Shown: positions 40,462 through 59,996 of the stretch, piece by piece
How positions within the stretch are numbered: position 1 is the stretch's first letter
Layout of the letters: every line of letters starts with the position of its first letter
Assembly: GCA_019913005.1 (NCBI GenBank)
Contig: JAIOHL010000105.1
Span: forward strand, 11,177-75,176
Direction: 5' to 3'
DNA: 64,000 nucleotides
Source of the DNA: Anaerolineae bacterium
Lineage (GTDB): Bacteria > Chloroflexota > Anaerolineae > Aggregatilineales > J027
The notes under the pieces: model-generated
Told to the model about the DNA's origin: nothing
The model's database searches: none
Seen by the model: the letters and a program-made list of their open reading frames with translations, nothing else
Program-made: the position numbers and the translations under genes

Positions 40462-40494
40462 GACAGGCGTAGGCGAATCACTGGCAAAGCACTC

Positions 40495-40523: not shown

Positions 40524-40560
40524 AAGGCCCTCTTGGACTAGGTTTACTGGAACAAATTGA

Positions 40561-41979: not shown

Positions 41980-41997
41980 AAATTTTGGAGTAGTAGG

Positions 41998-43395: not shown

Positions 43396-44268
43396 CATAA
43401 GGGGTTCGGATTGTACCTCCGGCCCTGTCTCGGATACTGGATCGGGTGGTGCTGTTGCTGGCGTCGCCTCCGGTGTGGGATTGAGGGTCGGCAGGATTTC
43501 GGTTTCATAAATCATCTGGTGATATTTCTCCATCACCTCTTTGGTATCCCCATCCATCATCATGCGGCCTTTATGCAGCCAAATCGCCCGATCACACAGT
43601 CTCATCACTTGGGCGGTTTGGTGGGTCACAATGAGCATCGTCAGTCCGCTGGCCTTCATCTCCAAAATCCGCTCGATGCACTTATCCTGAAATGCCACGT
43701 CCCCCACTGCCAAAATTTCATCAACAAACAATATTTCGGGCTTCAGATGCACCGCGATACTAAAGCCAAGTCGGGCATACATTCCGCTGGAATATCGCTT
43801 CACGGGTAGGTCAATAAACTGGCCCAATTCTGCAAACTCTATAATGTCATGAATCGCGTTTTCAATCTCACGGGGGGAAACCCCTTGAATAGCCGCGCTT
43901 AGGTAGATATTCTCCCGCCCACTGCGCTCCTGATTAAAACCCGCCCCCAACGCGATCAACGTTGAGAAACGACCACGCACAGACACATGCCCTTCCGTCG
44001 GGCGGGTAATCCCACACAGAGTACGAAACAGAGTGCTTTTGCCGGACCCATTACGCCCTACAATGCCAACAGTCTGCCCGGCTGGAACAGCAAACGATAC
44101 ATCCCGCAGTGCCCAAAATGGCTCGACGGGTTTGCGGGCAATGGACTGCTTTAAGAACCGCTTGGCAATGTCATTAAATTCATGCCGTAAGCTGGTGCGA
44201 CTTTCATTTTGGGCATACCGTTTAGAAACGTGTTCAGCCACGATAATCGGTTCAATTGGTGAAGTCAT
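43372..44268 (-). CDS. Polysaccharide/teichoic-acid-type ABC exporter, ATP-binding subunit (Wzt/TagH-like)
   Basis: Walker A GRNGSGKST, signature YSSGMYARL, Walker B ILFVDEILAVGD, H-loop VTHQ. It has a PT-rich C-terminal tail instead of a glycan-binding domain. Its 3-prime end overlaps the convergent gene by 24 nt. Confidence 0.9.
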   Translation of the reverse strand: MTSPIEPIIVAEHVSKRYAQNESRTSLRHEFNDIAKRFLKQSIARKPVEPFWALRDVSFAVPAGQTVGIVGRNGSGKSTLFRTLCGITRPTEGHVSVRGRFSTLIALGAGFNQERSGRENIYLSAAIQGVSPREIENAIHDIIEFAELGQFIDLPVKRYSSGMYARLGFSIAVHLKPEILFVDEILAVGDVAFQDKCIERILEMKASGLTMLIVTHQTAQVMRLCDRAIWLHKGRMMMDGDTKEVMEKYHQMIYETEILPTLNPTPEATPATAPPDPVSETGPEVQSEPLMLSTPDAP

Positions 44269-45419
44269 AGACGATCCGCAAAACCATCTTCTCTGGATTT
44301 AAAATAGACATAGCCCATAAATAACACGATGATCGAAACGACCAACGGAAAATACAGGGTTGAAAAATCGGGTGTCTTGGCATATACAATCACATCCCGA
44401 TAGGCTTGGAATAAGGGCACCAATGGGTTGATTGCCAAAATAAACCGATAGCGCTCCGGGATAAATGAGGCCGGATACAAAATGGGCGACATATAAAACA
44501 AAAGCTGCATCACTACCCCAACTAATTGGGGGATGTCACGCACTATTACACTCAGCGACCCCAAAAATAGCATCAGGCCCAACATAAATAGAGCCTGAAT
44601 CAAAATCAACAGTGGCAGATAGAGATAGAACCAATTCGGCCATACCCCACTGATCGCATTGATCAGCAGCATAGCGAGGAACATAAAAAACACATCTACT
44701 AGTGCCTCACCCAACGTAATCAAGATCAAAATCTCACGTGGGAAATAGACCTGAATAATCAACCCAATCTGGTTAAAGATGCTGGTCGAGCCTTTGGTAA
44801 TGCTCTGTTGAAATAACGTCCATGGAACCAATGCCGCCAAAAAGAACGTCACAAAGGGAACATCGGACGTGGTTACACCAATTCGCAAAAATTCCGAAAA
44901 AACAAATGCCAACACCCCGGAGGTCGCAAGGGGCAGTAAGATAATCCACAATATCCCCAATGTCGCTTGGCTATAACGGGCCAAAATGTTATAGCGTAGC
45001 CAAATGAGCAACAGAACCCGATAGCTCCAAAGTTTGGCAAGATGGAATGAGATAGGCTCGCCATCAGAACCTTTCCACATGGCCGGAATGACCGTGACAC
45101 ATGGCGCAAAAAGCACGGCAGCCCCCGCAAAGTAGGCCAACTGAAGTTGAGACAATGCTGGAATGAACAGCCATGCCAATCCTGTAGTGGCGACGGTTGC
45201 CAGCCACAAAATCAACAACTGACGTAGGGCAACCGTCAATTTTAGCCCTACACGAACGAGTATCAAGATGATAAAGTTAGCCACCACAACCGAAAGCGCC
45301 ATCAAAAGATAGAGGCCAATCGGGTGGGCCTGATAATCTTCACCCAATGGTTTGCCATAGGTATATTTAAGGCGGGTCTGCACAGCAACCAACATCGCTC
45401 CCACCAATACCGCCAGCAT
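44265..45419 (-). CDS. ABC-2 type exporter permease (Wzm/TagG-like) with extra N-terminal TM helices
   Basis: The ABC-2 membrane core starts near YRVLLLIWLRYNILARYSQATLGILWIILLPL. It overlaps the ATPase gene by 4 nt. The start is uncertain; I prefer ATG 45419 over 45503 or 45521, which would overlap the divergent gene. Confidence 0.8.
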   Translation of the reverse strand: MLAVLVGAMLVAVQTRLKYTYGKPLGEDYQAHPIGLYLLMALSVVVANFIILILVRVGLKLTVALRQLLILWLATVATTGLAWLFIPALSQLQLAYFAGAAVLFAPCVTVIPAMWKGSDGEPISFHLAKLWSYRVLLLIWLRYNILARYSQATLGILWIILLPLATSGVLAFVFSEFLRIGVTTSDVPFVTFFLAALVPWTLFQQSITKGSTSIFNQIGLIIQVYFPREILILITLGEALVDVFFMFLAMLLINAISGVWPNWFYLYLPLLILIQALFMLGLMLFLGSLSVIVRDIPQLVGVVMQLLFYMSPILYPASFIPERYRFILAINPLVPLFQAYRDVIVYAKTPDFSTLYFPLVVSIIVLFMGYVYFKSREDGFADRL

Positions 45420-45501
45420 TTTGAGAGATGACAAGAGTGTATAAACGCGAATTTGGCTTTTAATCAAGAATTTCTTATCCAAGTCAGTAGTCACAAAACA
45501 C

Positions 45502-47922
45502 ATGAACCAACACCATAACAAAAAACTATTGCTTGGCTTGGCCCTCTGGTTGATATTAACCGGGACTTACATCTTTAGCTATAGTGGATTACCGCTAAGT
45601 TCGGACGAGTATATCATTTTTGACAGCACTCAAAGCCTTGTCTTAAACGGCACAATGGCTCGAACGATTGGTTATAATGTTGATCCCAGCATCCAAGAAG
45701 ACGGTACTCCTTGGCCCCAACAAAAATATGAACCCCTTCAAGTGATAATTGCCGCCCCATTATTCTGGCTGGGTCATCAACTGCCAGACATTGGGCGACT
45801 GCATACTGTTTTTACTCTAAATATTTTCATCATGGCGCTTACAGCACTCAGCTTATATATCATTGCCCTACAACGCGGGCATCGTCTTGCGGTTGCATGG
45901 TGGGGAGCGCTCATCTTTGGGGTTGCCACCGCCGCATGGCCCTACAGCCGGTGGATCTTTCGTGAACCTGTGATGAGCCTTTTTGTGGTATGGGCGTTTC
46001 ACTTTGGTACCCAAGTTCACCAACGTATGGAACAGCACCAGTCGGTTTGGCGACAGGCCCTCCTTGCAGCCTTAGCCATTGTCGCGGCGATCCTGACCAA
46101 ACAAATCGGTTGGTTAATCCTACCCGCCGTTTTAATTTCCCTTTTCCCTTCACGAGTCATTTGGCGACACGCCTTGCCTGCCATCGTGATTCTGGTACTT
46201 ATTTTGGGGACGCTTATCTCGGTGGTTCTTTTCCTCCAACCCGATGTGGAAGAAGGTCGTTATTCAGTTACCCGCTGGACAGACCTCGATACCCTCACAT
46301 GGAATTCAGTTCCAGAGAGTCTGCTCGGTTATCATGTTAGCCCCTCTCGTAGTTTATGGCTGTTTTCGCCAATTCTAGCAGCAGGCTGGATCGGCGCGGT
46401 GATGTTGTGGCGGCGTGGCGAATGGCGCATAGTGCTTGGTCCAGCACTCGCGTTGATGGTGGTCAGCGCTAGTTATGGTGTCACTCGTCAAAGCACGGTT
46501 TGGAATGGGGGATGGGGATGGGGGCCGCGTTATATGGTGCCATTTCTACCCGTCCTAATGATCTGGGTGCTGCCTGTACTTGAATGGCTTTTTCGCAAGC
46601 CGACGACCCTCAAGCAATACACCGGATGGCTGGTCTTTATTCTGCTTTTGATTGTCAGTGTTGGGATGCAGTGGCTTGGTCTCGGTGTCCCGTATACCAA
46701 TTACTACACTGAACTTCAATTTAGCCTCTTTGATGACCCAACCCGTTTTGATGAATGGCAAAAATGGGCGGATTATAATTGGGTTTGGAGCGAGTCACAG
46801 ATTCCCTATCATTGGCATCATTTTAGCGGCGACCAATTGCAACCTGCATGGACAATTGTAGAGCAAGAATGGTTAATGCCGCTATTGACGCTCATGATGC
46901 TACTTATCGGCGTTGGCCTGTGTGCATGGGTCATATTTGCCAAGCATGGCCCTTCCTTAAATACCCCTCTGAAGACGGCCATCACAGCCGTTGTGGTCTT
47001 GTCGCCCATCCTCCCTCTCGGCGAAGGCATCTATCAACTGCGCGACGATGAACGTTATATCAGCGACCAATCCGATGTATTTGAACTCATCAACATACTC
47101 AATCAAGAAGTTCAACCCGACGATATTGTATTGATTGAACGTGGTGAGTATTCGCGCCTGTTCATGAATTATTTTAAAGCCGACGCGGTGTTAATGACCC
47201 TTCCTCTGCCGCTACGTGGCGGTTATGCACCGGGTGAACCCGAAATCCGCGATGACGAACTCTACCCCGCCCTCGGCCCCTATGCGAGTTATGCGCTCGA
47301 TTGGGCACCGGATCATTATCGTCGTCTATGGTTTGTAGCTGCGTCCGGGCCATTTATCACGGATGCGATTCGCCCTGCCGAACGGCTACTGACGATTCGT
47401 TACTTTCCCGTCCGTGAATACACCGTCAGCCAAACAGCACGCGCCATTTTGTATGACACGGTGGATGTTCCAAGTGTCCCAGCCGTCTACCGTACAAATT
47501 TTATTTTTGGCGAACTCTTAGGGCTGTTAGGTTTTGATCTGCCACGCGGCACCACTTATCAGCCGGGGGATGTTGTCCCTATTTCGATTGTTTGGCTGGC
47601 CCTGCAACCGATGGTTACTGATTATAACGTCAGCGTTCGCATCTCCGACGCCACTCATCGTCCTGTTGTCCAACAAGACGGGTTGCCTATTGCCACTTTT
47701 GGTCATACTTCGCACTGGGAGATAGGTCACACCCTCCGTGACAATCATGGCCTCGAACTACCTGCCAATCTGCCGTCGGGTGAGTATTATCTTGAAGTCA
47801 CAGTCTACAACTATGTCACAGGTGAAAATTTAGCGGTGCGTAACCCAGATTTGGGCGCGGTTCCCAGCAATCGCATTGCCACACTCCTCCCCATTACGGT
47901 GCAGGAGAACTCGCATGATTGA
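45502..47922 (+). CDS. GT-C fold membrane glycosyltransferase (GT39/GT83-like, PMT/ArnT type) with a large C-terminal soluble domain
   Basis: 806 aa with at least 10 TM. The first-loop acidic motif is [11 protein letters not shown]. About 300 aa at the C-terminus are non-membrane. Confidence 0.7.
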
Positions 47923-48721
47923 TCACGGCAAGTACAATGTCTTAGGTGTCGAGATCAACGCCATTGACTATGCTGCGGCTGTCGAACGCATTATTTCGGC
48001 GGCCCGAACTCAACAACCGCTGACGGTCACTGCTCTTGCTGTGCATGGTGTCATGACGGGTGTCCTTGATAAAACCCACCGCTATCGCCTCAATCGTTTA
48101 GACCTCGTTACTCCCGACGGCCAGCCAGTGCGATGGGCACTCAACTGGTTACATAAAACGGGCCTGATGGATCGTGTCTATGGCCCAACGCTGACCCTTA
48201 AACTATGCGAACGGGTCGCTTCCGAAAACCTGCCCATTTATCTTTATGGCAGTCAGCCTGAAACACTAAATCAACTAGCCCAAAATTTGACCCGCCAATT
48301 CCCCGGTTTGAAAATTGCCGGGATGCAACCCTCATTTTTTCGTCAGGTCACCGCCGATGAAAAGCTGCAAATCGCCACGAAAATCCAAGCCAGTGGCGCA
48401 AAAATGGTCTTTGTCGGGTTGGGCTGCCCACGTCAAGAAACATGGGTCTATGAATACCGTGATCTGCTGTCCATGCCCTTACTAGCAGTAGGGGCCGCTT
48501 TCGACTTTCACGCCGGAACGCTTTCTCAAGCCCCCGCATGGATGCAAAAACGTGGCCTTGAATGGTTCTATCGCCTGACCCGCGAACCCACCCGCCTCTG
48601 GAAACGCTACCTGCTGCTGAATCCACTCTATCTGTGGTTGTTATTTCTCCAAGTCACCCGCCTCAGAATCAATGATCCCGCCGATGCCACAGCCCCTACC
48701 GAAGAAATGCGTTACGGATAA
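47915..48721 (+). CDS. WecB/TagA/CpsF family (GT26) glycosyltransferase
   Basis: ATG 47915 follows AGGAG and overlaps the upstream stop (ATGATTGA). Family blocks are [31 protein letters not shown] and [16 protein letters not shown]. Confidence 0.88.
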
Positions 48722-48767
48722 AAAAGGAACCACAAGGACTAGCCCTGTAGTTCCCAATAACTGGCTG

Positions 48768-49046
48768 TTACGTCATCAGAAATTTGCTCAACTCGTCGTT
48801 TTTACGCTTGGCCTTCTCTTTTGGTTGGGCCGGCATCACCACCCATAGGATGCCATAAATCACCATGACGGTCTCAAGATTTACGACGAACAGGGCTACG
48901 GTAATGAACACCAGCCGAACCAACGTGGGGTCTATCTTGAGAAATTCGGCAATTCCCCCACAGACGCCTGTGAGCATCCGATTTTCAGCCGAACAATAGA
49001 GACGCTTTTGGAAATTCACTGTGCCTCCTCTTTTTCGCATCCACAT
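48768..49046 (-). CDS. PspC-domain membrane protein
   Basis: KRLYCSAENRMLTGVCGGIAEFLKIDPTLVRLVFI is the PspC domain signature, followed by one TM. The start is uncertain and overlaps the upstream gene by about 25-31 nt. Confidence 0.75.
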   Translation of the reverse strand: MWMRKRGGTVNFQKRLYCSAENRMLTGVCGGIAEFLKIDPTLVRLVFITVALFVVNLETVMVIYGILWVVMPAQPKEKAKRKNDELSKFLMT

Positions 49047-49273
49047 CCCTCAAACTTGAGGCCGCCTTGCTTCCGTCTGTCCACAAATTCATCTAGCTTG
49101 GAGGCCGCCCCTTGTCGCACCATCTTGCCAACTTCGATGGCTTCCGTGATTTCTTGTTCATCGGCTCCGCTTTCCAAAGCCTTCGTGACATTCGTTTGCA
49201 AACACGGCTGACAATTGGCACTCACCGAGGCCCCAACCGCAATGAGCCGTAATGTCCGATTATCCAATTTCAA
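49016..49273 (-). CDS. Carboxymuconolactone decarboxylase/AhpD-like family protein (CxxC)
   Basis: LDNRTLRLIAVGASVSANCQPCL contains a CxxC motif. The C-terminal tail reads GCGCEKE. Confidence 0.78.
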   Translation of the reverse strand: MKLDNRTLRLIAVGASVSANCQPCLQTNVTKALESGADEQEITEAIEVGKMVRQGAASKLDEFVDRRKQGGLKFEGCGCEKEEAQ

Positions 49274-49512
49274 GGATTCACCTCCAGTGGACTGCCTTTC
49301 CTCTTCTCAAGGGTCGAGATACCAAAAGGCACATACAAAATACAGAAGCCGCTGACTGCTGTCGTCAACATAAACCCGCCAAAGGCAGCAGCAACCACCC
49401 CATTGAGATCACCATGCACGCCTCCCAAAAGGAACATGCCGACCAGCAGAATCAATACTCCCGCGACAAACCGCACGGCCCGATCCACCGTTCCACAATT
49501 CTGTCGAAACAT
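49270..49512 (-). CDS. DUF2892 (YgaP-like) small membrane protein
   Basis: The N-terminus is MFRQNCGTVDRAVRFVAGVLIL, followed by two TM helices. It overlaps the downstream gene by 4 nt. Confidence 0.72.
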   Translation of the reverse strand: MFRQNCGTVDRAVRFVAGVLILLVGMFLLGGVHGDLNGVVAAAFGGFMLTTAVSGFCILYVPFGISTLEKRKGSPLEVNP

Positions 49513-49574
49513 CGTTTCACCTCCTTTCTAATTTCTATAGACGGAGGCGAATCGAAAAGGATACAGTGAAATTT

Positions 49575-50180
49575 TTAATGTTTCTTGCGATATTGCTCAA
49601 AGACAGCCTTTAGGTTGGGCACAAACTCATTTTCTTCGACCCAGTACGCTTCGCAATGGACCTCTAATTCATGCCGAAGTTTTGCTCTGGCCCGGTGCAA
49701 GCGAATTTTCACCGTATCCAGTGTGATGCCAAGAATAGTGGCGATTTCTTGGTTTTTAATCCCCTCCAACTCGCTCAGGATAAGCACTGTTCGATAGTCA
49801 TCAGGCAGTTGGTGAATAAAATTTCGAATGCAATCGTTCATTTGTTGCCGGACAAGCTGCTGCTCCACCGAAAGCGCCCTTTCGCCAGTCCACATCTCCC
49901 GGTCTTCGATTTCGATCAAATCGTCCGATAGCTCAATCGTGTCGCCTTGAGGAATAGGGCACTCCCGCAGCCGATCTATCGCTGTGTTGGTCGCAATACG
50001 ATAAATCCAAGTGGAAAGCTGCGACTCCCCTCTGAATTCTTCCAACCCGCGATTGACCTTCACGAAAACCTCTTGGGTCAAGTCTTCGGCCTCAGCTTCA
50101 CCTGCTAAGCGAGCCATGTAGCGCAATATCTTGGGGTGAAACTCGTCATAGATTCGCTGGAAATTGAGTGGATCGTCCAT
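49575..50180 (-). CDS. ECF-type sigma-70 family RNA polymerase sigma factor
   Basis: Region 2 is DLTQEVFVKV...STWIYRIATNTAIDRLR. Region 4 is YRTVLILSELEGIKNQEIATILGITLDTVKIRLHRARAKL. There is a long sigma2-sigma4 linker and a roughly 28-aa C-terminal extension. Confidence 0.9.
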   Translation of the reverse strand: MDDPLNFQRIYDEFHPKILRYMARLAGEAEAEDLTQEVFVKVNRGLEEFRGESQLSTWIYRIATNTAIDRLRECPIPQGDTIELSDDLIEIEDREMWTGERALSVEQQLVRQQMNDCIRNFIHQLPDDYRTVLILSELEGIKNQEIATILGITLDTVKIRLHRARAKLRHELEVHCEAYWVEENEFVPNLKAVFEQYRKKH

Positions 50181-50192
50181 GAAACTCCTCCG

Positions 50193-51149
50193 TCAAAACC
50201 ACTGGCGTAAATCGCGCCATTCGACTTTGCGCCCTGCCTGAATAACACGCCGTTTTGCTATCATGCGCTTGCGAAGCTGCCACACCGACCCAAATGCCCG
50301 CAAGGAAGCACGTTCCTTTAACAAAATGAACCCCAAAATTTTCAGGTCATACCACAGAATGGCCGGGGCATCGCGCCAAAAATGCGGCATAATCTCATTT
50401 TTCATCATCAGCAAATAACGATTCCGCACCCCTAAAAGGCGCATATCCGCTGAGACCCGTTCACGCTGACCGGGCCGAAATCCGCGAATATGATGCCCCA
50501 CCGCCTCCGGTACGTACACCGACTGCCAACCGCGCAGTTGTGCCCGCCAGCACACATCCACATCTTCCTTGTGCATAAAAAAATCTTCGTCAAACACCTC
50601 GCCATTAATCGCAATATCTTCCAGCATGGCCCGCCGATAAATCGCTGCTGCGCCATCCGGCCCAAACACCGCATCGGACTGCATTGGCGTCTCATCAATT
50701 GGATCACCACTGTTTCGCAATAGTTGACGGCGCGAACGACTCATCAACAAGCCCGTGCTATCCATCCATTGCGGCGTCTCACCCAATTTTTCTACACGCA
50801 GCAATAACCCCGCTGCCGAACCAAGTTTTGGATTTTCATCAAGGGCCGCCAGCATCGTCGCCAGGTACCCCGGTGCCAACCACACATCCGGGTTGAGCGT
50901 CAGTACATAGTCGCTTTGGGTGCGGCTGATGGCTAAATTATGCGCCGCCGAATATCCCAGATTTTCCGTGTTACCTATGACCTCAACGCCCTTTTTCTGC
51001 ACCCGCGCCACCGTATCATCAGTGGAGGCGTTATCCACCACCAGCACCCCAAAATCTACCCCCTGCTGACCCAACAATGAATCGAGGCACATTTCGATAT
51101 GATCGGCGCTGTTATAGGTCACGAGATGCACCGAAATTTTTATCGTCAC
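50193..51149 (-). CDS. Family 2 glycosyltransferase
   Basis: GTG start with a GGAG 8 nt upstream. Family blocks are ISVHLVTYNS, VVDNASTDDT and HKEDVDVCWR. Confidence 0.88.
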   Translation of the reverse strand: MTIKISVHLVTYNSADHIEMCLDSLLGQQGVDFGVLVVDNASTDDTVARVQKKGVEVIGNTENLGYSAAHNLAISRTQSDYVLTLNPDVWLAPGYLATMLAALDENPKLGSAAGLLLRVEKLGETPQWMDSTGLLMSRSRRQLLRNSGDPIDETPMQSDAVFGPDGAAAIYRRAMLEDIAINGEVFDEDFFMHKEDVDVCWRAQLRGWQSVYVPEAVGHHIRGFRPGQRERVSADMRLLGVRNRYLLMMKNEIMPHFWRDAPAILWYDLKILGFILLKERASLRAFGSVWQLRKRMIAKRRVIQAGRKVEWRDLRQWF

Positions 51150-51286: not shown

Positions 51287-54200
51287 GTGTCAAGATTAGC
51301 CAATCGGCGCATTTTTTCAGGTGCCTTGATCTTTATCTTTCTGATAGCAGGTATTATACTGTCCGCCCAGCCCACACCGGCTCGTTCGGATGATGGCCCC
51401 GTTGGACGATTAATCGAATCGGATGATCCCCTCGTCCAGCAATCGGGCAGTTGGACAAAACAAGCCGCCGCCGGAGCCAGTGGGGGAAGCTACCTCTACA
51501 GCGGCAAAAGCGTAGACGATACGCTGACACTGGAATTTGTCGGCCCGCGTATCGAAATCGTCTATGTGCAAAATCCGGCATTGGGGGCACTCGCCATTGA
51601 AGTAGACGGCACCGTTCTGCGTACCGTCATGACCGATGGCACGACCCCCCAATTTGGCAACCGCGCCATTGTAGATTATTTGGAAAACGGCCCGCATACC
51701 CTCAAGGTCTATCCACAAGAAGGCACGATTATCGGGGTAGATGCTTTTTATATTCCAGCACCGCCGCCTGTTGAACCCACCCCAACCGAGACCGCGCCTG
51801 TCGCTTCAACCCCCATTCCGCGTGGTGTGAATACCGACAAACTCGATGAAACGGTCATGGCCGCCGCCCAAAGTGAAGGTCAAATCCGGGTCATTGTGCA
51901 ACTGCGTACCCCCTCGATTGGTTTTGGCCGTGTGCCATTTAACACCCGCCTCAATGCCGACATGCAAAATGAGGTCTTGGCAAGTGCAGGCAAATTTGAA
52001 GTCCGCCATAAATATTCCCACCTGCCAGCCTTTGCGGGGTATGCCGACTTTGCCACCCTTATCCAATTGCAAGCTGACCCATTGGTGGAATCCATCGTCA
52101 TTGACGAACCCAGCACCATGCACACGGATGTGAGCGTACCCGCCATCCAAGCCGACATCGCCCGCAACACTTACGGCCTACGTGGGCGCGGTGTTACGAT
52201 TGCCGTGTTGGACTCTGGTGTTGAAACCAATCATCCCGATTTGAGCGACGATATTATTGCCCAACACTGTGAAACGGCGGGCAATTGCCCACCAAGCAAC
52301 ACCACTAGTGGGATCAGTGCCGAAGATGCCAATGGGCATGGCACAAATGTCAGCGGCGTCATTACTTCCAACGGCGTCGTTGCGCCCATTGGGTTTGCGC
52401 CGGATGTCAAAATTGTTGCTGTTCGTGTGTTATCTTCTGCTGGTAGTGGTTTCGTCTCAGACTGGGTAGACGGCCTAAATTGGATTATCGCCAATCAAGC
52501 CACCCTTAATGTAGATATCATTAACATGAGTCTCGGCACCAACGCCCTCTATGTTCTTGCTCCAGTACCACCAGAACAAACATGCCAAGTTGCACAACCA
52601 ACTGTAGAAACAGCAGTTTCAACCCTAATTAACACTTATGGCATCACAATTTTTGCTTCAAGTGGTAATCAAGGAAGTGGATCCGGAATGGCATCACCTG
52701 CATGTAATACAGGTGTAGTCTCGGTTGGCGCAACTTATGACAGCAATCTAGGCGCGGAACCTGATAGCGGAACATATCAAACGCTTTTTGGTGGCTCATG
52801 GCCCGCTTGTGCCGATGCCTCCACCAGCGCGACGGTCATCACTTGCTTTACCAACAGCAATGCCGAACTCGACTTGCTGGCCCCCGGCGCACGCATTACT
52901 TCCGCAGGCTACACTTCACTTCCTACCCCGGGTACTACTAGTACCTATCGTGGTACCTCCCAAGCCTCACCCACAGTGGCAGCAGTCGCGGCCTTGATGT
53001 TAGAAGCCAATCCCACTCTGACTCCGGCCCAAATTCAAAGCACGCTGTACAGCACCGGGGTTAATGTGACGGATTCCAAGAATGGCTTTACCTTCCGACG
53101 TATCAATGCCCTCGCCGCCGTTCAAGCCGTTTTGCCAGATGAAGCCGCCGGAGCGCCAGCCAACGACTTGTTTGCCAACGCGACTGTCGTTTCTTCCCTA
53201 CCCTATCGGCGCAATCAAGAGGTCTTTCAAGCCACCACGACTGGCACTGATCCATCTGGCGCAACTCTATGTAATGTTGCGACCCGTTCAGATACAGTTT
53301 GGTATCAGTATACGCCACTATCCGCTGGACTAGTCTCGGTCAGCACGGAAGGCAGCACCTACGACACGGTAATCGGCGTCTACAGAGGGACAGAAGGTTC
53401 ATTGATATTTGAGGGGTGCAATGATGACGTAGACGCCCTCCACGCCATCCGTACCTCTGCCCTAAATTTCAGTGCGACAGGCGGCGTAACCTATCGCATC
53501 ATGATTGCAAAATATGGGACAGCCGCAACGGGCACCAGTGTCCTGCGTCTGAGCGTCAGCAATATTCCAGTCGGCGATACCATTGCGGTGTTCAACAACA
53601 GCGCCAACTATGCGGGCCTTGTGGACACCCTCCAAACATCACCCCCCCCGGTCAACTATGCCACCTACCCCACTGGTGGGCCTCAAACGGGTGGTCAATG
53701 GGTCATGGGTGACTGGAACGGCGATGGGCAAAAAACGCCGGGGCTGTATGCGCCCAATGGCGTGTTCTATTACACCAACAACATCGGCTACGAGGCGGCT
53801 AATCCTTGGGCAGGCTTCTGGATTGGCCTATTCAATCGGCCTCTGGTGGTTGGCAAATTTAGTGGGGCCACCAACGATTGTGTGGGCGCGGTGGACAGTG
53901 GCAACTTCCCCCCCTATGGCACCGCGTTTGCGCTCTATTTCACCTGCAACTATGCGGGCAATCCCAATCCGCCTTTGACCTTCCAATGGTTAAGCGTCGT
54001 GCTGAGTGATAGCGCGGGCTTTGCTGGGCTGGGCGATCATCAGTTTGTATCAGGGGATTGGAATAATGACGGTCTAGATTCGGTTGCCGTGCGGCGTGGG
54101 CCATTTATCGCCTTTACCAACATCGTTCCCGGTACAGGTCATGCCGAGTTCAATCTGGCCCAATACATCGGCGCACCAAGTTCTGTCAATTACGGCCTAT

Positions 54201-54373
54201 TGGTGGCGGGTGACTGGGACAGCAACAACATAGACAGTTTTGGCCTTGTCTATAACAATGGCGATTTCTACCGTCGCAACGATCTGGACTGGAATTCAGG
54301 GGCCTATATCTACCAATATATCGGCCTGCCGACTGGCATCATCCACAGTGCTGCATCTTGGCGTCAACGGTAA
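51287..54373 (+). CDS. Secreted multidomain subtilisin (S8) protease: jelly-roll-like N-domain, I9 propeptide, S8, PPC-like domain, shared FG-GAP-like module
   Basis: GTG start 7 nt after a GGAG, with a signal peptide. The catalytic triad is IAVLDSGV (Asp), NGHGTNVSG (His) and GTSQASP (Ser). The PPC-like region runs PANDLFANAT...TYRIMIAKYG. The C-terminal 266 aa is the shared module. Confidence 0.9.
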   Translation: MSRLANRRIFSGALIFIFLIAGIILSAQPTPARSDDGPVGRLIESDDPLVQQSGSWTKQAAAGASGGSYLYSGKSVDDTLTLEFVGPRIEIVYVQNPALGALAIEVDGTVLRTVMTDGTTPQFGNRAIVDYLENGPHTLKVYPQEGTIIGVDAFYIPAPPPVEPTPTETAPVASTPIPRGVNTDKLDETVMAAAQSEGQIRVIVQLRTPSIGFGRVPFNTRLNADMQNEVLASAGKFEVRHKYSHLPAFAGYADFATLIQLQADPLVESIVIDEPSTMHTDVSVPAIQADIARNTYGLRGRGVTIAVLDSGVETNHPDLSDDIIAQHCETAGNCPPSNTTSGISAEDANGHGTNVSGVITSNGVVAPIGFAPDVKIVAVRVLSSAGSGFVSDWVDGLNWIIANQATLNVDIINMSLGTNALYVLAPVPPEQTCQVAQPTVETAVSTLINTYGITIFASSGNQGSGSGMASPACNTGVVSVGATYDSNLGAEPDSGTYQTLFGGSWPACADASTSATVITCFTNSNAELDLLAPGARITSAGYTSLPTPGTTSTYRGTSQASPTVAAVAALMLEANPTLTPAQIQSTLYSTGVNVTDSKNGFTFRRINALAAVQAVLPDEAAGAPANDLFANATVVSSLPYRRNQEVFQATTTGTDPSGATLCNVATRSDTVWYQYTPLSAGLVSVSTEGSTYDTVIGVYRGTEGSLIFEGCNDDVDALHAIRTSALNFSATGGVTYRIMIAKYGTAATGTSVLRLSVSNIPVGDTIAVFNNSANYAGLVDTLQTSPPPVNYATYPTGGPQTGGQWVMGDWNGDGQKTPGLYAPNGVFYYTNNIGYEAANPWAGFWIGLFNRPLVVGKFSGATNDCVGAVDSGNFPPYGTAFALYFTCNYAGNPNPPLTFQWLSVVLSDSAGFAGLGDHQFVSGDWNNDGLDSVAVRRGPFIAFTNIVPGTGHAEFNLAQYIGAPSSVNYGLLVAGDWDSNNIDSFGLVYNNGDFYRRNDLDWNSGAYIYQYIGLPTGIIHSAASWRQR
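53573..54370 (+). repeat. Shared roughly 260-aa module, copy A (paralogous coding repeat)
   Basis: GQWVMGDWNGDGQKTPGLY...NDCVGAVDSG...YFTCN...PPLTFQWLSVVL...GDWNNDGLDSVAVRRGPFIAFTN...GDWDSNNIDSFGLVY...SWR. By eye it is about 80% nucleotide identity to copy B over long stretches. Confidence 0.9.
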
Positions 54374-54451
54374 ATTAAATCCCCTCTAATAAGCCTTATC
54401 CCCCTTTTCCTCTAGGTTCATCACATGAATCGAGCGGAGAGGGGGGTAACA

Positions 54452-54480
54452 TTGCAAAAGAATCGAGACTTTACTATACT
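54452..54480 (+). promoter_or_regulatory. Candidate promoter for the metalloprotease gene
   Basis: TTGCAA (54452-57), 17-nt spacer, TATACT (54475-80). A second hexamer, TATAAT, sits at 54481-86. The spacer is AT-rich. Confidence 0.35.
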
Positions 54481-54567
54481 TATAATCGGTTCTTAATTCT
54501 GATTTCATTTTTAATTATCAGACCAAGAACTCACTTCAATCAAGTATAGGGAGAAATACAGCCGTCT

Positions 54568-57234
54568 ATGTTACCCAAACGATGGTTGATAATCGCCGTC
54601 CTTGTCCTAATTAGCCTCGTCGAAGGCCTAAGCGTCACCTTCTTACTCACCGACAGTTCGTCCGCCGCGCCCCATCGTCAAGGAATGATTACCCTTGTCG
54701 GTAAACTCGGCGTTTTGCATCACGACCCCGGCCCGGGTTCCGATCTTGCTTACCACTACGATGTCACCCTAGTGGATCAGACCGGGAATGTCACACCTCT
54801 ACTCCTCGATATTTCCACCGCCTCTCGCCTGCAAGACAAAACCGTGAAGGTCAGTGGGTATGAGGTCGAAGGTGGCGGAGCAGGTGCGGATGGGGATAGC
54901 CCAGCGATCAAGGTGGGGACGATTAGCATTGTTGAAGAAGGCGACACCCAAGCGCAGTCGGCCCGTATCGGTGGCAGTTATCCATTTGTCAATATTCTGT
55001 GTCGTGTTTCCAATGGCAGTGCCTCCAACGAACAGCCGATTTCCTATTTTACGGGTCTGTTCAGTGCTTCCTACCCCGGCATCAACCACTATTGGCAGCA
55101 AATGTCGGGTGGCTTGTTTAATGTCACCGGATCAGCGACATTTGGTTGGTTTAACCTTTCGGGCACTTCTTCAACGTATAATCTTACAACCAGTGCCGGA
55201 CGCCAAGCCCTCTATAATGAATGTACGGGCCTTGCCGATGCTCAAGTCAATTTTGCCAACTATTCCGGTGTCAACCTGATTATCAATCACTCCATGCAAA
55301 ACGTGGCCTATGGCGGCTATGGCGGCTATCCCCTCAATCGAGATGGGGTGTCATGGTATCGTTATACATGGCTGCCCAATTGGGCGTGGCAAAACGAATC
55401 GCCGTTTGTGCATGAAATGGGTCATGCAATTGGAATGCCACATTCATCCGGTGCGTATGGTGCGTCTTATGATTCGCAGTGGGATGTCATGAGCGACACT
55501 TGGGGCAGTTGTGGACGACCCGGCGCGGATGATCTAACCTATGGTTGTTTGCCACAGGGGACGAACTCGTTCCACCTTGATACCTTATTGGGTTGGATTC
55601 CCGGAGCCTCCAAAGTGACCGTCAGCCCCGGTCAAAGCCAAACTGTCACACTCGAACGGCTTAATCAACCCTACACAACCGGCTATCGTATGGTGCAGGT
55701 GCCCTTTTATGGCGTATCCAATCGTTTTTATGTAGTCGAAGTCCGCCGTACCACCAGCACTCCGCCCCCCTCTCAATATTACGATGCCATCCTGCCCGGT
55801 AACGCCGTGATCCTGCACGATGTTTTGAATAACGGCAGCCGCAGCCAACCTGCCCAAGTCGTGGATGTTGACAATAACAGCAACCCCAACGACGCAGCAG
55901 CCCAATGGACACCCGGCGAAGTTTTCACCGATAACACCAATGGCATCACCATGCGTGTCCTATCCCAAACCAACACGGGTTATACCGTGCAGGTCAGCAA
56001 TGTCTATGGCGATACATTGGCCCGCTTTAACAACACCAATGGCAATGTCAGTCTTGTCAACTCCTTGCTAGACAACCCCAGTTCCTATACCAACTTTCCG
56101 GGGGGTGCGCCTGTCACAGGTCAGTGGGTCATGGGTGACTGGAATGGCGACGGTCTCAAAACGCCCGGTCTCTATGGGTCAAATGGGGTGTTCTATTTTA
56201 CCAACAGCAACGCCACCACCGGCACTTGGGGGGGCATCTGGGTCGGCTTATTTGGTCGGCCCGCTGTTGCAGGTCGTTTTACCGGCGCTGCTAACGATTG
56301 TCTCGGCGTCGTGGACAGCGGCTATTATGCAGGCTACGGGACTGCCTTCGCCCTTTATTTCACCTGCAATTTCACCAGCGGGCCTACTCCACCCCTGACC
56401 TTCCAATGGTTAAGTGTGGTGCTTGGTGATGCTGCGGGTTTTGGTGGATTGGGAGCACATCAATTTGCGACCGGGGATTTCAACGGCGATGGAATAGACA
56501 CCATTGCGGTGCGGCGCGGCCCGTATGTTGCTTTTACCAATGTCGCACCTACCACCCTTGAAGCAGCGTTCAATCTCGCGCAGTATTTTGGCACACCCAG
56601 TACCAATGACTATGGCATTTTCCTATCCGGCGACTGGAACAATGACGCGATTGACAGTTTCGGCGTTTATTACAGCAATGGATATTTTTACCGTCGCAAT
56701 GATGTCCAATGGAATACGGGCCAATACAGTCTGCAACGGGTTTCAACCTCCATCGGCACCTCATCCTTAAGTGTTACCTCTTGGCGATCCGGTGGCGCAG
56801 GAAGTGGCAGCGGTCAAACCGACATCCCCCCATCCCAAACATCGACCACTAGCACTGTCGAATCGAATGATCCAATTGTCCGCCAAGACGGGTTATGGCA
56901 GTTGGTGAATTCGCCTGAATCAAGCGGCGGGGGATATTTAGTGACCGCTTCGGCGGAACAGAGCCTTGAATACAGTTTCAATGGCAGTTCAGTGGAGGTC
57001 ATCTACGCCCACGTGGGAGCACCCGCCTCATTCACCATTTTGGTTGATGATGTCGCCGTCCGTACCATCATTCTCCCAGATTCCACCACTGCTTATCGCC
57101 AAAGCAGCCTCATCAATTATTTGGAACCCGGTGAGCACACACTCCGCATTGTATCACTGAGTGGGTCAGTAGCGATTGACGCTTTCAGCATTGGCACAGA
57201 CGTAAATGCTAATGAGGGACAAACAACTCCCTGA
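54568..57234 (+). CDS. Secreted zinc metalloprotease (HExxHxxGxxH, metzincin-type motif) with the shared FG-GAP-like module and a C-terminal jelly-roll-like domain
   Basis: It has a signal or anchor peptide. The zinc motif is HEMGHAIGMPH, with a downstream Met (WDVMSD) that could be a Met-turn. The shared module occupies residues 481-740, followed by a GSG/ST linker and a roughly 115-aa domain homologous to the N-domain of the S8 protein. Confidence 0.75.
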   Translation: MLPKRWLIIAVLVLISLVEGLSVTFLLTDSSSAAPHRQGMITLVGKLGVLHHDPGPGSDLAYHYDVTLVDQTGNVTPLLLDISTASRLQDKTVKVSGYEVEGGGAGADGDSPAIKVGTISIVEEGDTQAQSARIGGSYPFVNILCRVSNGSASNEQPISYFTGLFSASYPGINHYWQQMSGGLFNVTGSATFGWFNLSGTSSTYNLTTSAGRQALYNECTGLADAQVNFANYSGVNLIINHSMQNVAYGGYGGYPLNRDGVSWYRYTWLPNWAWQNESPFVHEMGHAIGMPHSSGAYGASYDSQWDVMSDTWGSCGRPGADDLTYGCLPQGTNSFHLDTLLGWIPGASKVTVSPGQSQTVTLERLNQPYTTGYRMVQVPFYGVSNRFYVVEVRRTTSTPPPSQYYDAILPGNAVILHDVLNNGSRSQPAQVVDVDNNSNPNDAAAQWTPGEVFTDNTNGITMRVLSQTNTGYTVQVSNVYGDTLARFNNTNGNVSLVNSLLDNPSSYTNFPGGAPVTGQWVMGDWNGDGLKTPGLYGSNGVFYFTNSNATTGTWGGIWVGLFGRPAVAGRFTGAANDCLGVVDSGYYAGYGTAFALYFTCNFTSGPTPPLTFQWLSVVLGDAAGFGGLGAHQFATGDFNGDGIDTIAVRRGPYVAFTNVAPTTLEAAFNLAQYFGTPSTNDYGIFLSGDWNNDAIDSFGVYYSNGYFYRRNDVQWNTGQYSLQRVSTSIGTSSLSVTSWRSGGAGSGSGQTDIPPSQTSTTSTVESNDPIVRQDGLWQLVNSPESSGGGYLVTASAEQSLEYSFNGSSVEVIYAHVGAPASFTILVDDVAVRTIILPDSTTAYRQSSLINYLEPGEHTLRIVSLSGSVAIDAFSIGTDVNANEGQTTP
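56008..56787 (+). repeat. Shared roughly 260-aa module, copy B
   Basis: GQWVMGDWNGDGLKTPGLY...NDCLGVVDSG...YFTCN...PPLTFQWLSVVL...GDFNGDGIDTIAVRRGPYVAFTN...GDWNNDAIDSFGVYY...SWR. Confidence 0.9.
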
Positions 57235-57270
57235 CAGACTCTAACAATTTCAATTTGCTAACTTTCTACA

Positions 57271-57316
57271 GATTCCAGTGATTTTTGATTTACAATTAAG
57301 AAGAGTTACTGGAATC
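57271..57316. other. 9-bp perfect inverted repeat in the AT-rich spacer (terminator or operator candidate)
   Basis: GATTCCAGT (57271-79), 28 nt, ACTGGAATC (57308-16). It lies between the metalloprotease stop and the PD40 gene start. Confidence 0.4.
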
Positions 57317-57441
57317 TATTCTACCATTTAGAAAATATGCGGATTGGGCCAATTTAAGGCATAAACTGGATTTATGACAATCTCTCAATAAAATTAACAT
57401 AACATTGAGACCCTAGTTGTTGGGTGATCGGAAAGATAAGC

Positions 57442-59943
57442 ATGAGAAATAAGTCTCTCCTCAGAAAAAGATGGTTTACCCTCCTCATCCTCGGCTGGAT
57501 GGTGGTGATTGGCGTCTTGCCAGAACACGCCCCCCCCGTCGCGCTTGCTCAAGGGTGTGCAACGGGTGCCATGTATCGTGTATCTATCAGCGACAATGGC
57601 ACCAATGTCGGCAATGGTAATTCTGACCCAGCCCGTATTTCAAGTGATGGGCGATTTATCGTATTCGCCTCAGACTCGGACAACTTGGTGGCAAACGATA
57701 CCAATGGTGTCACCGATATTTTTGTACACGACCAGTTGAATTGCACGACTAGACGCATTTCATTATCGAGTGCAGGAGTACAGGCCACTGGGGGCCCCTC
57801 AACCAATCCGCAAATCTCGAACGACGGGCGCTATGTTGTCTACCAATCATTAGCCAACAACCTCGTGTCGGGGGACTCTAATGATGCGGAAGACATTTTC
57901 TTGCGTGACCGCGCAACCAACACCACCACTCGTGTTTCGGTCACCAGTGGAGGTGTACAAGGCGGGCTGAATCTCCATTCATTTAATCCGGTCATTTCTG
58001 GCGACGGACGTTTTGTGGCCTTTGAATCCGGGGCCAATTTCGTCGGCGGCACAGATGCAAATGGTGGGCTGTCCGACATCTATCTACGTGACCTCAGTGC
58101 AGGTACCACCACCCTCCTCTCGGTCAGCACTGCCGGACAGCAAGGGAATAATGAGTCACGCGAACCCTCCATTTCTGGGGATGGAAGCGTGGTAGCATAT
58201 ATGTCGTTCTCGTCCAACCTTGTCGCTGGCGATACCTTAGACCCAGATATTTTCGTCCGCGATCTCATCAACAATACGACGACCCTTGCCTCGGTTACGT
58301 CAAATGGTGCCCAAGTGCCTGACAACTTTGCCGAAGCGGGGCCAGAAATTTCAGCAGATGGGCGTTTTGTGGTTTTTGTTTCAACCGCCTCGTTTGACCC
58401 GATAGATGACAATGGCATCAACGATATTTATGTACGTGACCGTGTGACAAGCATCACTGAATTGGTTTCGTTGGCTTTTAACGGTACCAGCGCGTCTGAT
58501 GGGGAATCGTCGAACCCATCAATCTCAACCGATGGTACCCTCGTTACTTTTGAGTCGCACGCCACGAACCTGACCAACAACGATACCGAAAATCAACTGG
58601 ATATTTTTCTGCGCAATCGCACGACAGACGCAACCTCGCGCATTTCACAAAACACTACTGGCGCAGGCGGCACCCTCCCCTCATTCCGAGCAAGCATTTC
58701 AACCGATGGGCGTTACATTGCGTTCACGTCGGATGCCGACAATTTACTTGGAACAGGTGGTGACCTGAACTCCCGTACTGACGTCTTCATTTTCGACCGT
58801 TCACCAGGGTCTGGTGCATTCTTTGCCCCCGCAAACCTAGTCGTGACGCCCGTTTCGCGCAGCCAAATCAACCTCGTATGGGTTGACAATGCCACCAATG
58901 AAACCGGCTTTAGCATTGAACGTTCCGAAAATGGCGTAGATGGCTGGCAAATTATTCACGCGACTGCCCCCAACACCGCCACCTATGCAAGCGCTGGTTT
59001 GATATGCAGTGCCCGCTTCTACTACCGAGTACGTGGTTTTGTAGATGGTGATGGTATCCCTCCCTATGATACGGTCTCGGCCTATACCAATCCAGCCAAT
59101 GCCAGTACCTTCTCCTGCGCAGACGACAAATTAGCCGTTTTCCAATACCAAGCGGGTCAAGCCAGTCAATGGCTAAACTTCAACAGCCCCGCGACAACCT
59201 TTGATCGCAGTACCTTCACCATGGGCGCTCCGGCGGCTACCATAGGCGGCGCGTGGGTCATGGGTGACTGGAACACAGACTCGGTCAAGACTCCCGGCGT
59301 CATGGCGACCAATGGTATTTTCTACTATACCAACACCAGTGGGCCGTCCTCACAGTGGCTTGGGATATGGATTGGTTTTCAAGGCGGTGGGCGACCTGTT
59401 GTCGCGGGCCGCTTCGACTTCCGCAGCATGAATGATTGTATCGGCGTTGTAGACAGTGGCCCCTTCCCGCCTTGGGGCACGGCCTTCGCGCTCTACTACT
59501 CCTGCGACCTCACCAACGGGACGGCACCGCCACTGGGCGTGCAGTGGTTAAGCACGATGCTGCCCGATAATCAAGGGTTTACAGGCACCCATCAATTCTG
59601 CGCAGGCAACTTTAACAATGACCGCATTGATTCGGTAGCCATTCGGCGCGGCGCGTTTGTCGCATTCACAGACCGTGCCCCCTATCCGCCTGAACCCGGT
59701 CTCTCGATCAGTTACTCGGCCTTCGATCGCGCCCAATATCTTGGCACACCCGAAGCCCCTGAAGGTTTGTTTACCTGCGGCGACTGGAACCACAATTTAC
59801 AAGATAGTTTCGGCCTCTATTATGCGGGCACTGGTAACTTCTGGTACCGCCAAGACCTCGACTGGAATTCTGGCCTATGGACAACCCAACAAGCGGGTAA
59901 TCCACTGGGCACAACCCTGATTGCCGCAGGCTCGTGGCGCTAA
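57442..59943 (+). CDS. Secreted 7-bladed PD40/TolB-like beta-propeller, fibronectin-III-like domain and shared FG-GAP-like module
   Basis: ATG 57442 gives a signal peptide. There are seven repeats of IS.DGR.V.F.S.A.NLV..D.N...DIF.RD. An Fn3-like stretch follows (PANLVVTPVSRSQINLVWVDNATNETGFSIERS). The C-terminal 273 aa is the shared module. Confidence 0.82.
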   Translation: MRNKSLLRKRWFTLLILGWMVVIGVLPEHAPPVALAQGCATGAMYRVSISDNGTNVGNGNSDPARISSDGRFIVFASDSDNLVANDTNGVTDIFVHDQLNCTTRRISLSSAGVQATGGPSTNPQISNDGRYVVYQSLANNLVSGDSNDAEDIFLRDRATNTTTRVSVTSGGVQGGLNLHSFNPVISGDGRFVAFESGANFVGGTDANGGLSDIYLRDLSAGTTTLLSVSTAGQQGNNESREPSISGDGSVVAYMSFSSNLVAGDTLDPDIFVRDLINNTTTLASVTSNGAQVPDNFAEAGPEISADGRFVVFVSTASFDPIDDNGINDIYVRDRVTSITELVSLAFNGTSASDGESSNPSISTDGTLVTFESHATNLTNNDTENQLDIFLRNRTTDATSRISQNTTGAGGTLPSFRASISTDGRYIAFTSDADNLLGTGGDLNSRTDVFIFDRSPGSGAFFAPANLVVTPVSRSQINLVWVDNATNETGFSIERSENGVDGWQIIHATAPNTATYASAGLICSARFYYRVRGFVDGDGIPPYDTVSAYTNPANASTFSCADDKLAVFQYQAGQASQWLNFNSPATTFDRSTFTMGAPAATIGGAWVMGDWNTDSVKTPGVMATNGIFYYTNTSGPSSQWLGIWIGFQGGGRPVVAGRFDFRSMNDCIGVVDSGPFPPWGTAFALYYSCDLTNGTAPPLGVQWLSTMLPDNQGFTGTHQFCAGNFNNDRIDSVAIRRGAFVAFTDRAPYPPEPGLSISYSAFDRAQYLGTPEAPEGLFTCGDWNHNLQDSFGLYYAGTGNFWYRQDLDWNSGLWTTQQAGNPLGTTLIAAGSWR
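59122..59940 (+). repeat. Shared roughly 260-aa module, copy C (more diverged)
   Basis: GAWVMGDWNTDSVKTPGVM...NDCIGVVDSG...YYSCD...PPLGVQWLSTML...GNFNNDRIDSVAIRRGAFVAFTD...GDWNHNLQDSFGLYY...SWR, then the stop. Confidence 0.85.
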
Positions 59944-59968: not shown

Positions 59969-59996
59969 GGGCAGGTGCTTCAACCTGCCCTTTTTT
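59969..59996 (+). terminator. Rho-independent terminator after the three-gene secreted-protein block
   Basis: GGGCAGG, 8-nt loop, CCTGCCC, then TTTTTT. Confidence 0.8.

Follow-up and report, generated by a model that had tools for sequence, protein, structure and literature searches.

A predicted propeller module shared by three adjacent secreted proteins of an Anaerolineae bacterium, with a possible role in surface retention

Why should three neighbouring genes with unrelated heads encode the same extension of roughly 260 residues? The question is raised by a 64-kb stretch of DNA from an Anaerolineae bacterium of the Chloroflexota (contig JAIOHL010000105.1; GC content about 51%), hereafter the window, to the whole of which coordinates below refer unless another locus (L) is named. 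In it, an S8 protease, an HExxHxxGxxH metalloprotease and a seven-repeat PD40 protein lie in tandem on the forward strand, each carrying one copy of the extension. We find that this module represents a genuine domain family with clear limits, so far unannotated, whose fold is predicted with confidence, and that it is coupled to a second shared module. We further suggest that it represents a new propeller family of Anaerolineae-type Chloroflexota that may act as a glycan-binding surface-retention module, most likely on the producer's own envelope or sheath, a reading to which we assign a probability of roughly 45%. Our literature searches found no earlier description of the module.

Three proteins, one module and its predicted fold

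The genes and the parts of their products are as follows (aa, amino acids; ORF, open reading frame).

51287..54373, + strand: gene 1, secreted S8 subtilase, 1028 aa (ORF)
51413..51754, + strand: jelly-roll copy 1, S8 aa 43-156 (33% identity and E 2.7e-17 to copy 2 by BLASTP, alignment A6; fold taken from the copy 2 model)
52184..53065, + strand: S8 catalytic domain of gene 1, aa 300-593 (Pfam Peptidase_S8, PF00082, 145.8 bits against a cut-off of 21.8, E 2.1e-42)
53573..54370, + strand: propeller module copy A, S8 aa 763-1028, Cys865/Cys887 (alignment A1, AlphaFold2, Foldseek)
54568..57234, + strand: gene 2, secreted metzincin-type metalloprotease, 888 aa (ORF)
56008..56787, + strand: propeller module copy B, metalloprotease aa 481-740, Cys578/Cys600 (alignment, BLASTP, profile search)
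56857..57192, + strand: jelly-roll copy 2, metalloprotease aa 764-875 (sub-threshold Pfam CE2_N, AlphaFold2, Foldseek)
57424..59943 (alternative ATG 57442), + strand: gene 3, secreted PD40 protein, 839 aa, with Fn3-like spacer and propeller module (ORF)
59122..59940, + strand: propeller module copy C, PD40 protein aa 567-839, Cys672/Cys694 (alignment, BLASTP, profile search)

An earlier note on this DNA, made by reading the sequence, had described three ORFs on one strand, and the ORF list bears this out (51287-54373, 54568-57234 and 57424/57442-59943). Its naming of the heads as S8, HExxHxxGxxH and seven-repeat PD40 also stands; the Fn3 assignment was not confirmed, Pfam giving no Fn3 match in the window protein at E<=0.1. 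All three proteins begin with a basic and then hydrophobic stretch, read directly from the sequence, that resembles a signal peptide. In gene 1 this is followed by the jelly-roll, the S8 domain, a PPC-like spacer and the propeller module, and the catalytic triad D308/H351/S558 sits in canonical motifs (LDSG308, HGT351 and GTSQASP556). Gene 2 runs from its signal-like N-terminus through the head to the propeller module, an S/T/G-rich linker and the jelly-roll; its zinc motif, HEMGHAIGMPH, lies at aa 282-292 (55411-55443), and its profile matches are weak, to M66 in Pfam (15.4 bits against a cut-off of 20.6) and to M6 in NCBIfam (TIGR03296, 36.6 bits against 110.8, E 4.7e-9). Gene 3 carries seven PD40 repeats (about 57637-58803; Pfam PD40 E 7.8e-17) with a period of about 59 aa, starting at aa 72, 131, 191, 250, 309, 367 and 425. 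The S8 and metalloprotease sequences show S/T/P-rich linkers. Lipoprotein status of the PD40 protein by way of 'LAQGC' was considered and rejected, the lipobox being non-canonical on inspection.

The module coordinates given in the earlier note hold, and a six-frame profile search at E<=10 found no further copy in the window. The three copies, each of about 260 aa, align end to end, with 59% aa identity between A and B and 49% between A and C, and pairwise BLASTP E-values of 3e-105, 1.6e-71 and 4.5e-71. The conservation of two cysteines, a PPL..QWLS insert and a terminal SWR is likewise upheld. Among 89 near-complete modules of the wider family, taken as clusters at 50% identity, 41 positions are at least 90% conserved, including both cysteines and seven tryptophans. 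In copy A the cysteines Cys865 and Cys887, encoded at 53879-53881 and 53945-53947, correspond to module positions 103 and 125.

For copy A, an AlphaFold2 model that drew on 19 homologues has high confidence (predicted local distance difference test, pLDDT, 92.3; predicted template modelling score, pTM, 0.89) and shows an all-beta chain whose 20 strands fall into five groups of four. The last strand, which bears the SWR motif, follows four complete four-strand groups, and the N-terminal segment supplies three strands. The top Foldseek matches are all beta-propellers, at probability 1.0. Because of this strand pattern, and because all of the best fold matches are propellers, we infer that the module is a five-bladed propeller closed jointly by its N- and C-terminal strands. 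The earlier note had counted four FG-GAP-like units, and units 1, 3 and 4 are indeed clear repeats: in profile-profile comparison, blades 1, 3 and 4 are interrelated (hhalign 97-98%, E 1e-10 to 1e-14) and have the common motif hGD(W/F)(D/N)xDGxD(S/T)hh...G.F..(T/R)N. Unit 2 is marginal (hhalign E 2e-3 to 8e-3 to the other blades), the N-terminal segment gives no repeat signal in the same comparison, and the 20 strands of the model point to five blades. In the architecture that we propose, three FG-GAP-like blades would each present a calcium-type loop, (V/A)GD(W/F)(D/N)xDGxD(S/T), presumably able to bind calcium; one degenerate blade would extend a long hairpin; and the closing blade would be made of non-repeat N-terminal strands and the C-terminal SWR strand. 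Cys103 and Cys125 are cross-strand partners in the hairpin of blade 2 (i+j = 228; strands 103-112 and 116-124), and the pair is probably a disulfide that staples this hairpin, which fits since the protein is exported.

The earlier note had overlooked a second module shared by genes 1 and 2, the two jelly-roll copies listed above, which are homologous to each other. The model of copy 2 is a beta-jelly-roll with a pLDDT of 89.4. Its best fold matches are the N-terminal domain of family CE2 and many carbohydrate-binding modules (CBMs) of the families CBM36, CBM35 and CBM6, with query template-modelling scores (TMq) of 0.60-0.70 and E about 1e-6 in Foldseek; the solved structures matched are 2waa (CE2-N), 7ay3, 2w1w, 8j3x and 1ux7. 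The likeness is one of fold, with 11-20% identity, and by sequence the jelly-roll does not enter CBM_6, CBM35 or CE2_N, reaching only CE2_N in Pfam with 23.2 bits against a cut-off of 27.9. Whereas its fold relatives belong to carbohydrate-active enzymes (CAZymes), the jelly-roll here sits on proteases and propellers, and it nearly always co-occurs with the propeller module. It occurs in 42 of 96 family representatives, 29 times directly after the signal peptide and 13 times directly after the propeller, which are the two arrangements present in the window. In the genomes described below, 71% of 62 module genes carry it, and it hardly ever occurs there without the propeller. A separate search for jelly-roll homologues in a word-indexed database returned one match only.

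A domain family of Anaerolineae and its distant relatives

The size of the family was gauged by an exhaustive profile search of 1.84 billion representatives. At E<=1e-30 this gave 108 proteins, about 100 of which cover the full module with a single unbroken match (1e-43 to 1e-121) and fall into about 100 clusters at 50% identity; past a sharp drop in score, only multi-stretch, repeat-level matches are left. Every named source is Anaerolineae or Chloroflexota. Each family protein has exactly one propeller module. Of 88 untruncated representatives, 60 end with it, 13 have the jelly-roll after it and 15 have other sequence there. Of the 83 family proteins that start with Met, 64 have a hydrophobic N-terminus. 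The heads among 95 representatives include PD40 (31), S8 (12) and WD40 (8), along with fn3, DUF11, beta-helix/NosD, Calx-beta, Big_9 and Ig-like domains; glycoside hydrolases (GH) are not among the recurrent head families. The earlier note had proposed a count across genomes. In six metagenome-assembled genomes (MAGs), a pattern-limited scan with alignment A1, whose counts are lower bounds, found 62 module genes at 40 loci, or at least 11-16 per genome, many in tandem pairs or trios, on proteins with signal peptides. These observations support the view that the module is a promiscuous unit on exported proteins with unrelated heads.

Several members consist of little else. Near-module-only ORFs of about 335-340 aa are found at L007 10835-11854, L030 14148-15164, L032 2204-3217 and L036 10904-11902, three of the four lying immediately 3' of a further gene that encodes the module, and two 430-aa proteins (P0016 and P0017) have a signal peptide, jelly-roll and propeller without a head. 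A further gene with module and jelly-roll (about 1020-1037 aa) lies some 29 kb downstream of copy A in three of the relatives (L017, L016 and L015, on the same contigs as L001, L003 and L004), equivalent to about 19 kb past the end of the window.

The earlier note could not assign the module to a named domain, and Pfam, NCBIfam and PDB sequence searches were equally without a match. In Pfam at E<=10, copy A touches FG-GAP_3 (PF13517) with 11 bits (E 0.67; cut-off 26.9), copies B and C have no match, and PF01839 (FG-GAP) matches no copy; NCBIfam and PDB sequences, searched with profiles A1 and A2, gave nothing, and the BFVD viral fold library gave no match at E<=0.001. Weaker homologues (P0018-P0084), matched at 1e-10 to 1e-20, share single repeats only, in shuffled order. 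Aligned as A7, they make up an actinobacterial-type family of repeats of about 47 aa (consensus F.FG.PGD.P..GDW.GDG.DT.G..R....FY.RN..T.G.AD), with four to five units per protein, mostly unannotated in Pfam and fused to M23 (5), NlpC/P60, YkuD, C39-like, S8, Excalibur and C-type lectin domains; this may be a wall-targeting propeller of the Actinobacteria. Of its 67 members, ten reach PF13517 and eight have a head of M23, NlpC/P60, YkuD or C39-like type. Since it is these relatives, and not the module itself, that reach PF13517, the module is, on profile evidence, FG-GAP-like in a transitive sense, and by the Pfam cut-off it lies outside the family. The two share the GD(W/F)(D/N)GDGxD loop and occurrence on secreted proteins including wall enzymes; the PF13517 and 47-aa repeats, however, do not have the fixed five-blade unit, the PPL..QWLS insert or the terminal SWR strand. 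We had considered the M23, NlpC/P60 and YkuD fusions as direct family members and rejected them on domain mapping, which finds individual repeats and no module in them; they therefore provide context at the level of the superfamily.

Structural comparison reaches further. The top fold match of copy A is 9oee_A, the Streptomyces umbrella-toxin protein UmbA4 with teichuronic acid (E 2.5e-6, TMq 0.55), and the match would fall on the UmbA4 propeller domain. The next are the N-acetylglucosamine (GlcNAc) lectins AAL2, PVL and PAL and the fucose lectins PHL and PLL. In UmbA4 the C-terminal domain, a propeller lectin whose Ca-type loops are conserved, has the teichuronic acid of target Streptomyces as its ligand, and five-bladed propellers of twelve families are also in use among UmbA proteins (PMC13274773). 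Like the module, the UmbA4 propeller is built of degenerate repeats with such loops, follows a protease-fold domain in a secreted protein and shares that protein with a second domain of lectin type; its ligand is a cell-wall glycopolymer. In contrast to the five blades predicted for the module, UmbA4 has six, with 17% identity and no detectable sequence homology, and its inactive-trypsin head and its UmbB/UmbC partners have no counterpart in the trio; no trypsin family match was found in the three proteins or among the recurrent family heads. A search for a bridge to UmbA4 through the repeat-level relative P0027 gave only M23 structures. The fungal lectins PVL, PAL and AAL2 and the Photorhabdus lectins PHL and PLL, matched at E 1e-4 to 5e-3, likewise have FG-GAP-type blades with Ca-type loops and hold GlcNAc or fucose in pockets between blades, but they are stand-alone lectins with seven blades (TMq about 0.4, 11-14% identity) that have neither the Cys-stapled hairpin nor the non-repeat closing blade.

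As functional analogues one may think of the S-layer homology (SLH) and CWB2 domains, which are also multi-copy on diverse secreted proteins of one genome. Their folds are unrelated and give no Pfam match to the module, for which anchoring is a prediction. Profiles for SLH, CWB2, LysM and other named wall-binding modules found nothing in the three proteins (Pfam and NCBIfam, E<=0.1), nor are such modules among the top families of 95 family members. In some Firmicutes, anchored proteins are encoded beside the genes for their ligand polymer, and synthesis of the polymer involves a TagA/WecG-type enzyme.

What the module may bind

We suggest that these proteins would be exported behind their signal peptides, with the module as the C-terminal part of otherwise unrelated chains, and that propeller and jelly-roll would bind glycan non-covalently, holding the variable head on a glycan-rich surface. 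The likeliest such surface would be the producer's own envelope or sheath glycopolymer, and for the trio the candidate ligand would be the polymer of the flanking locus of Wzm/Wzt, WecG and GT-C genes (GT, glycosyltransferase) set out in the last section. Lectin-type targeting is most likely, and the best-supported reading of the module, since the closest fold is that of the glycopolymer-binding UmbA4 propeller and the CBM-like jelly-roll is coupled to it; the M23, NlpC/P60 and YkuD heads of the repeat-level relatives are consistent with the proposal as a whole. Carbohydrate binding, and any choice of ligand, would follow by analogy with these lectins, and the 41 positions conserved across 89 modules argue for a single common ligand and not for diversifying specificities. 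Self-anchoring on the producer's surface is plausible. The own envelope is favoured by the strong conservation of the module among so many paralogues, by heads that resemble a surface proteome and not a CAZyme set, by the embedding of three clients in a conserved glycopolymer locus, by the presence in the window of a gene for a ligase of the LytR-CpsA-Psr (LCP) family, and by the envelopes of filamentous Chloroflexota, which are multilayered and contain both polysaccharide and protein (PMC13319060).

A number of points weigh against this reading. Our searches found no sequence-level link of the module to any lectin or to PF13517. The fold similarity is modest, with TMq of 0.40-0.55, and protein-binding propellers score almost as well, with integrin alpha5, KICSTOR, BBSome and Ski8 matching at E 3e-4 to 1e-3. 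Blade number, disulfide geometry and surface conservation are read from the predicted strand pattern alone, and the UmbA4 lectin targets the cells of other species, not those of its producer (PMC13274773). The genomic argument is also narrower than the earlier note supposed: it stands for the trio, which is syntenic in five genomes, and it fails for 35 dispersed module loci, near which tblastn found no similar glycan genes. The 125 nearest neighbours of those loci are housekeeping genes (E1 dehydrogenase, GH4, PfkB, alcohol dehydrogenase, response regulators, KaiC and amidohydrolases), with no glycosyltransferase family recurrent among them, and the genomic context of the head-less protein P0016 is unrelated to glycan synthesis. 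A general association of the family with glycan loci, which we had considered, is ruled out by these dispersed loci; the association is specific to the trio and is no family-wide property. Because of them, the locus argument comes down to one conserved arrangement and one anecdote, namely a more distant Anaerolineae contig on which two module genes lie beside an extracytoplasmic function (ECF) sigma gene, an ABC ATPase gene and a GT4-methyltransferase gene.

It is also possible, though doubtful, that propeller and jelly-roll form the general non-covalent surface anchor of a filamentous Anaerolineae clade, with a ligand made by the Wzm/Wzt-WecG-GT-C locus; this would be the functional counterpart of SLH domains and their wall polymer, on an unrelated lectin fold. 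Dispersed module genes would be compatible with such an anchor because SLH genes are dispersed too, and they lend it no independent support. If true, it would show by what means part of the surface proteome is presented in a phylum with a poorly understood envelope.

The same structural evidence can be turned outward. Propeller and jelly-roll might be a lectin for foreign glycans, such as those of a biofilm or extracellular polymeric matrix, of glycoproteins or of other bacteria's walls, concentrating the heads on food or prey in the way that CBMs serve CAZymes or UmbA lectins serve umbrella toxins. UmbA4 does bind the teichuronic acid of another species, the jelly-roll does resemble CBMs of polysaccharide-degrading enzymes, two of the three trio heads are proteases, the stand-alone module-only ORFs of about 335-340 aa exist, and two divergent S8 module alleles in near-identical loci (see below) would fit a switch of specificity. 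Yet UmbA lectins are diversified and aimed at other species, whereas the module is highly conserved across lineages and among the 11-16 paralogues of each genome; roughly one head in three is a non-enzymatic PD40/WD40 propeller, glycoside hydrolases are not recurrent, and toxin or Umb components are not present. We regard this outward-facing lectin as unlikely, while granting it real weight. Quite unlikely, in our judgement, is a propeller that engages no carbohydrate and instead docks proteins, as a scaffold on an S-layer- or sheath-type protein or for oligomerisation. Here one would cite integrin alpha5, a KICSTOR subunit and BBSome among the fold matches, the lack of any lectin family matched by sequence, and the proteinaceous layers of Chloroflexota envelopes (PMC13319060); against this, the best fold match, with an E-value about 50-fold better, is a glycopolymer-binding lectin, several sugar-bound lectins come next, the module is tightly coupled to a CBM-fold domain, and peptidoglycan hydrolases are among the fusion partners of the repeat-level superfamily.

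The link to the glycan locus could also be one of glycosylation, a reading compatible with the others, in which the trio are substrates of an S-layer-glycan-type pathway (WbaP-type initiator, Wzm/Wzt, GT-C enzyme, terminal methyltransferase) and the module is a recognised or glycosylated element, or has nothing to do with the polymer. The locus does have the composition of an ABC-transporter-dependent glycan pathway with a GT-C enzyme and a methyltransferase, its synteny is conserved, and the S/T/P-rich linkers of the S8 and metalloprotease proteins offer sites; but these likely sites are then the linkers and not a compact propeller, most family members are encoded far from such a locus, and the lectin-like and CBM-like folds are left unexplained, all of which makes it improbable. 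Finally, five-bladed propellers include glycoside hydrolase families, and 60 of 88 complete representatives end with the module, so that one might take it for a GH43/32/68-type glycosidase or for a C-terminal secretion or sorting signal of the kind seen in type IX secretion C-terminal domains, LPXTG or PEP-CTERM. We disfavour both as very improbable: further domains follow the module in 28 of 88, its 260 structured residues far exceed known sorting signals, NCBIfam CTERM models gave no match, the top PDB fold matches include no GH-type propeller, and its FG-GAP-like repeats are non-catalytic.

Wastewater, anammox biomass and sediments all harbour abundant filamentous Chloroflexota, whose envelopes are atypical. 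For the question of how surface proteins are retained on such envelopes, the module offers a sequence handle on the surface and extracellular proteome, with at least 11-16 exported proteins per genome, proteases among them. Should glycan-binding retention on the producer's envelope glycopolymer prove correct, the module would be new among anchoring modules and might serve as a surface-display tag; binding of foreign glycans would instead suggest that lectins guide proteolysis in biofilms. The kind, an FG-GAP-like propeller that has lectin-like relatives by fold and is attached to secreted enzymes, has precedents, and a domain family definition is merited because Pfam and NCBIfam leave its 260 or so residues, and the roughly 115 of the jelly-roll, unannotated.

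The locus of the trio and its history

The trio sits within a set of genes for glycan biosynthesis and export, syntenic in five species-level MAGs (L001-L005, 76-91% nucleotide identity). This setting, claimed in the earlier note, is real by Pfam. Its genes, and two sites near the trio, are as follows.

36989..51149, mixed strands: upstream glycan biosynthesis and export genes (Pfam; syntenic in L001-L005), comprising the next nine entries
36989-38134, - strand: GT2
38215-39642, strand not marked: WbaP-type transferase (Bac_transf)
41998-43395, + strand: C39-like/TPR protein (Peptidase_C39_2-like and TPR)
43372-44268, - strand: ABC ATPase (Wzm/Wzt transporter)
44265-45521, - strand: ABC-2 permease (Wzm/Wzt transporter)
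45502-47922, strand not marked: PMT-like GT-C
47876-48721, strand not marked: WecG/TagA, GT26
49575-50180, - strand: ECF sigma
50193-51149, - strand: GT2 adjoining the trio
54452..54480, + strand: promoter-like site 5' of gene 2, TTGCAA-17-TATACT (consensus match only)
59969..59990, + strand: intrinsic-terminator-like hairpin after the trio, 8-bp stem with 6 GC pairs, then the T-run TTTTTTAT
60074-62920, + strand: large GT4 protein, downstream (Pfam; syntenic in L001-L005)
62917-63711, + strand: methyltransferase, downstream (Pfam; syntenic in L001-L005)

The placement of the trio between GT2 and GT4 is kept in all five genomes, and copies A, B and C each have a 1:1 orthologue in every one of them. 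The earlier note had judged copies A and B to be about 80% identical in DNA over long runs and had proposed a recent duplication or gene conversion. Both claims are contradicted: identity is 68% between A and B, 67% between B and C and 63% between A and C, reaching 80% only in the single best 100-nt window, with the longest exact run at 20-21 nt. With a separate orthologue of each copy in five species, the triplication, judged from these alignments, is old.

The S8 copy of the module exists as two alleles. The copy in L004 is 84% identical to that of L005 and 67% to those of the window, L001 and L002, whereas elsewhere L004 tracks the window (S8 head 86%, the other two modules 94% and 89%, flanking DNA about 88-91%). 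The blastn alignment breaks inside copy A (window about 53733-54149; L004 7742-10786, L005 7751-10786). This looks like the replacement of a module through recombination; among the sampled paralogues no donor above 68% identity was found.

The hairpin at 59969 is the sole strong terminator-like site in the region, as the earlier note had said, and it is kept in L001, L002 and L004. The intergenic spacers (54374-54567 and 57235-57423, about 190-200 nt) are conserved in close relatives, and since the promoter-like site before gene 2 falls in a block conserved out to L003, the three genes may be transcribed as separate units and not as a single operon. No common promoter or ECF-type motif was found 5' of the three genes, where the longest shared k-mers are 8 nt, and an Rfam scan of the whole window gave no match.

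Between WecG and GT2, the window, L002, L004 and L005 carry the ECF sigma gene, and L001 and L003 have none at that position; the distant module cluster L042 is also near an ECF sigma gene. LCP enzymes ligate wall glycopolymers to peptidoglycan, and the LCP family gene of the window (3594-5135, - strand) lies about 46 kb from the trio. The C39-like protein at 41998-43395 may be compared with the repeat-level relative P0021 (Propionibacteriaceae), in which a C39-like peptidase is fused to FG-GAP-like repeats. Elsewhere in the window, a 1189-aa protein (18379-21945, - strand) shows the unusual combination of ClpB-like AAA_2, ClpB_D2-small and AAA_lid_9 domains with a C-terminal PCRF domain.

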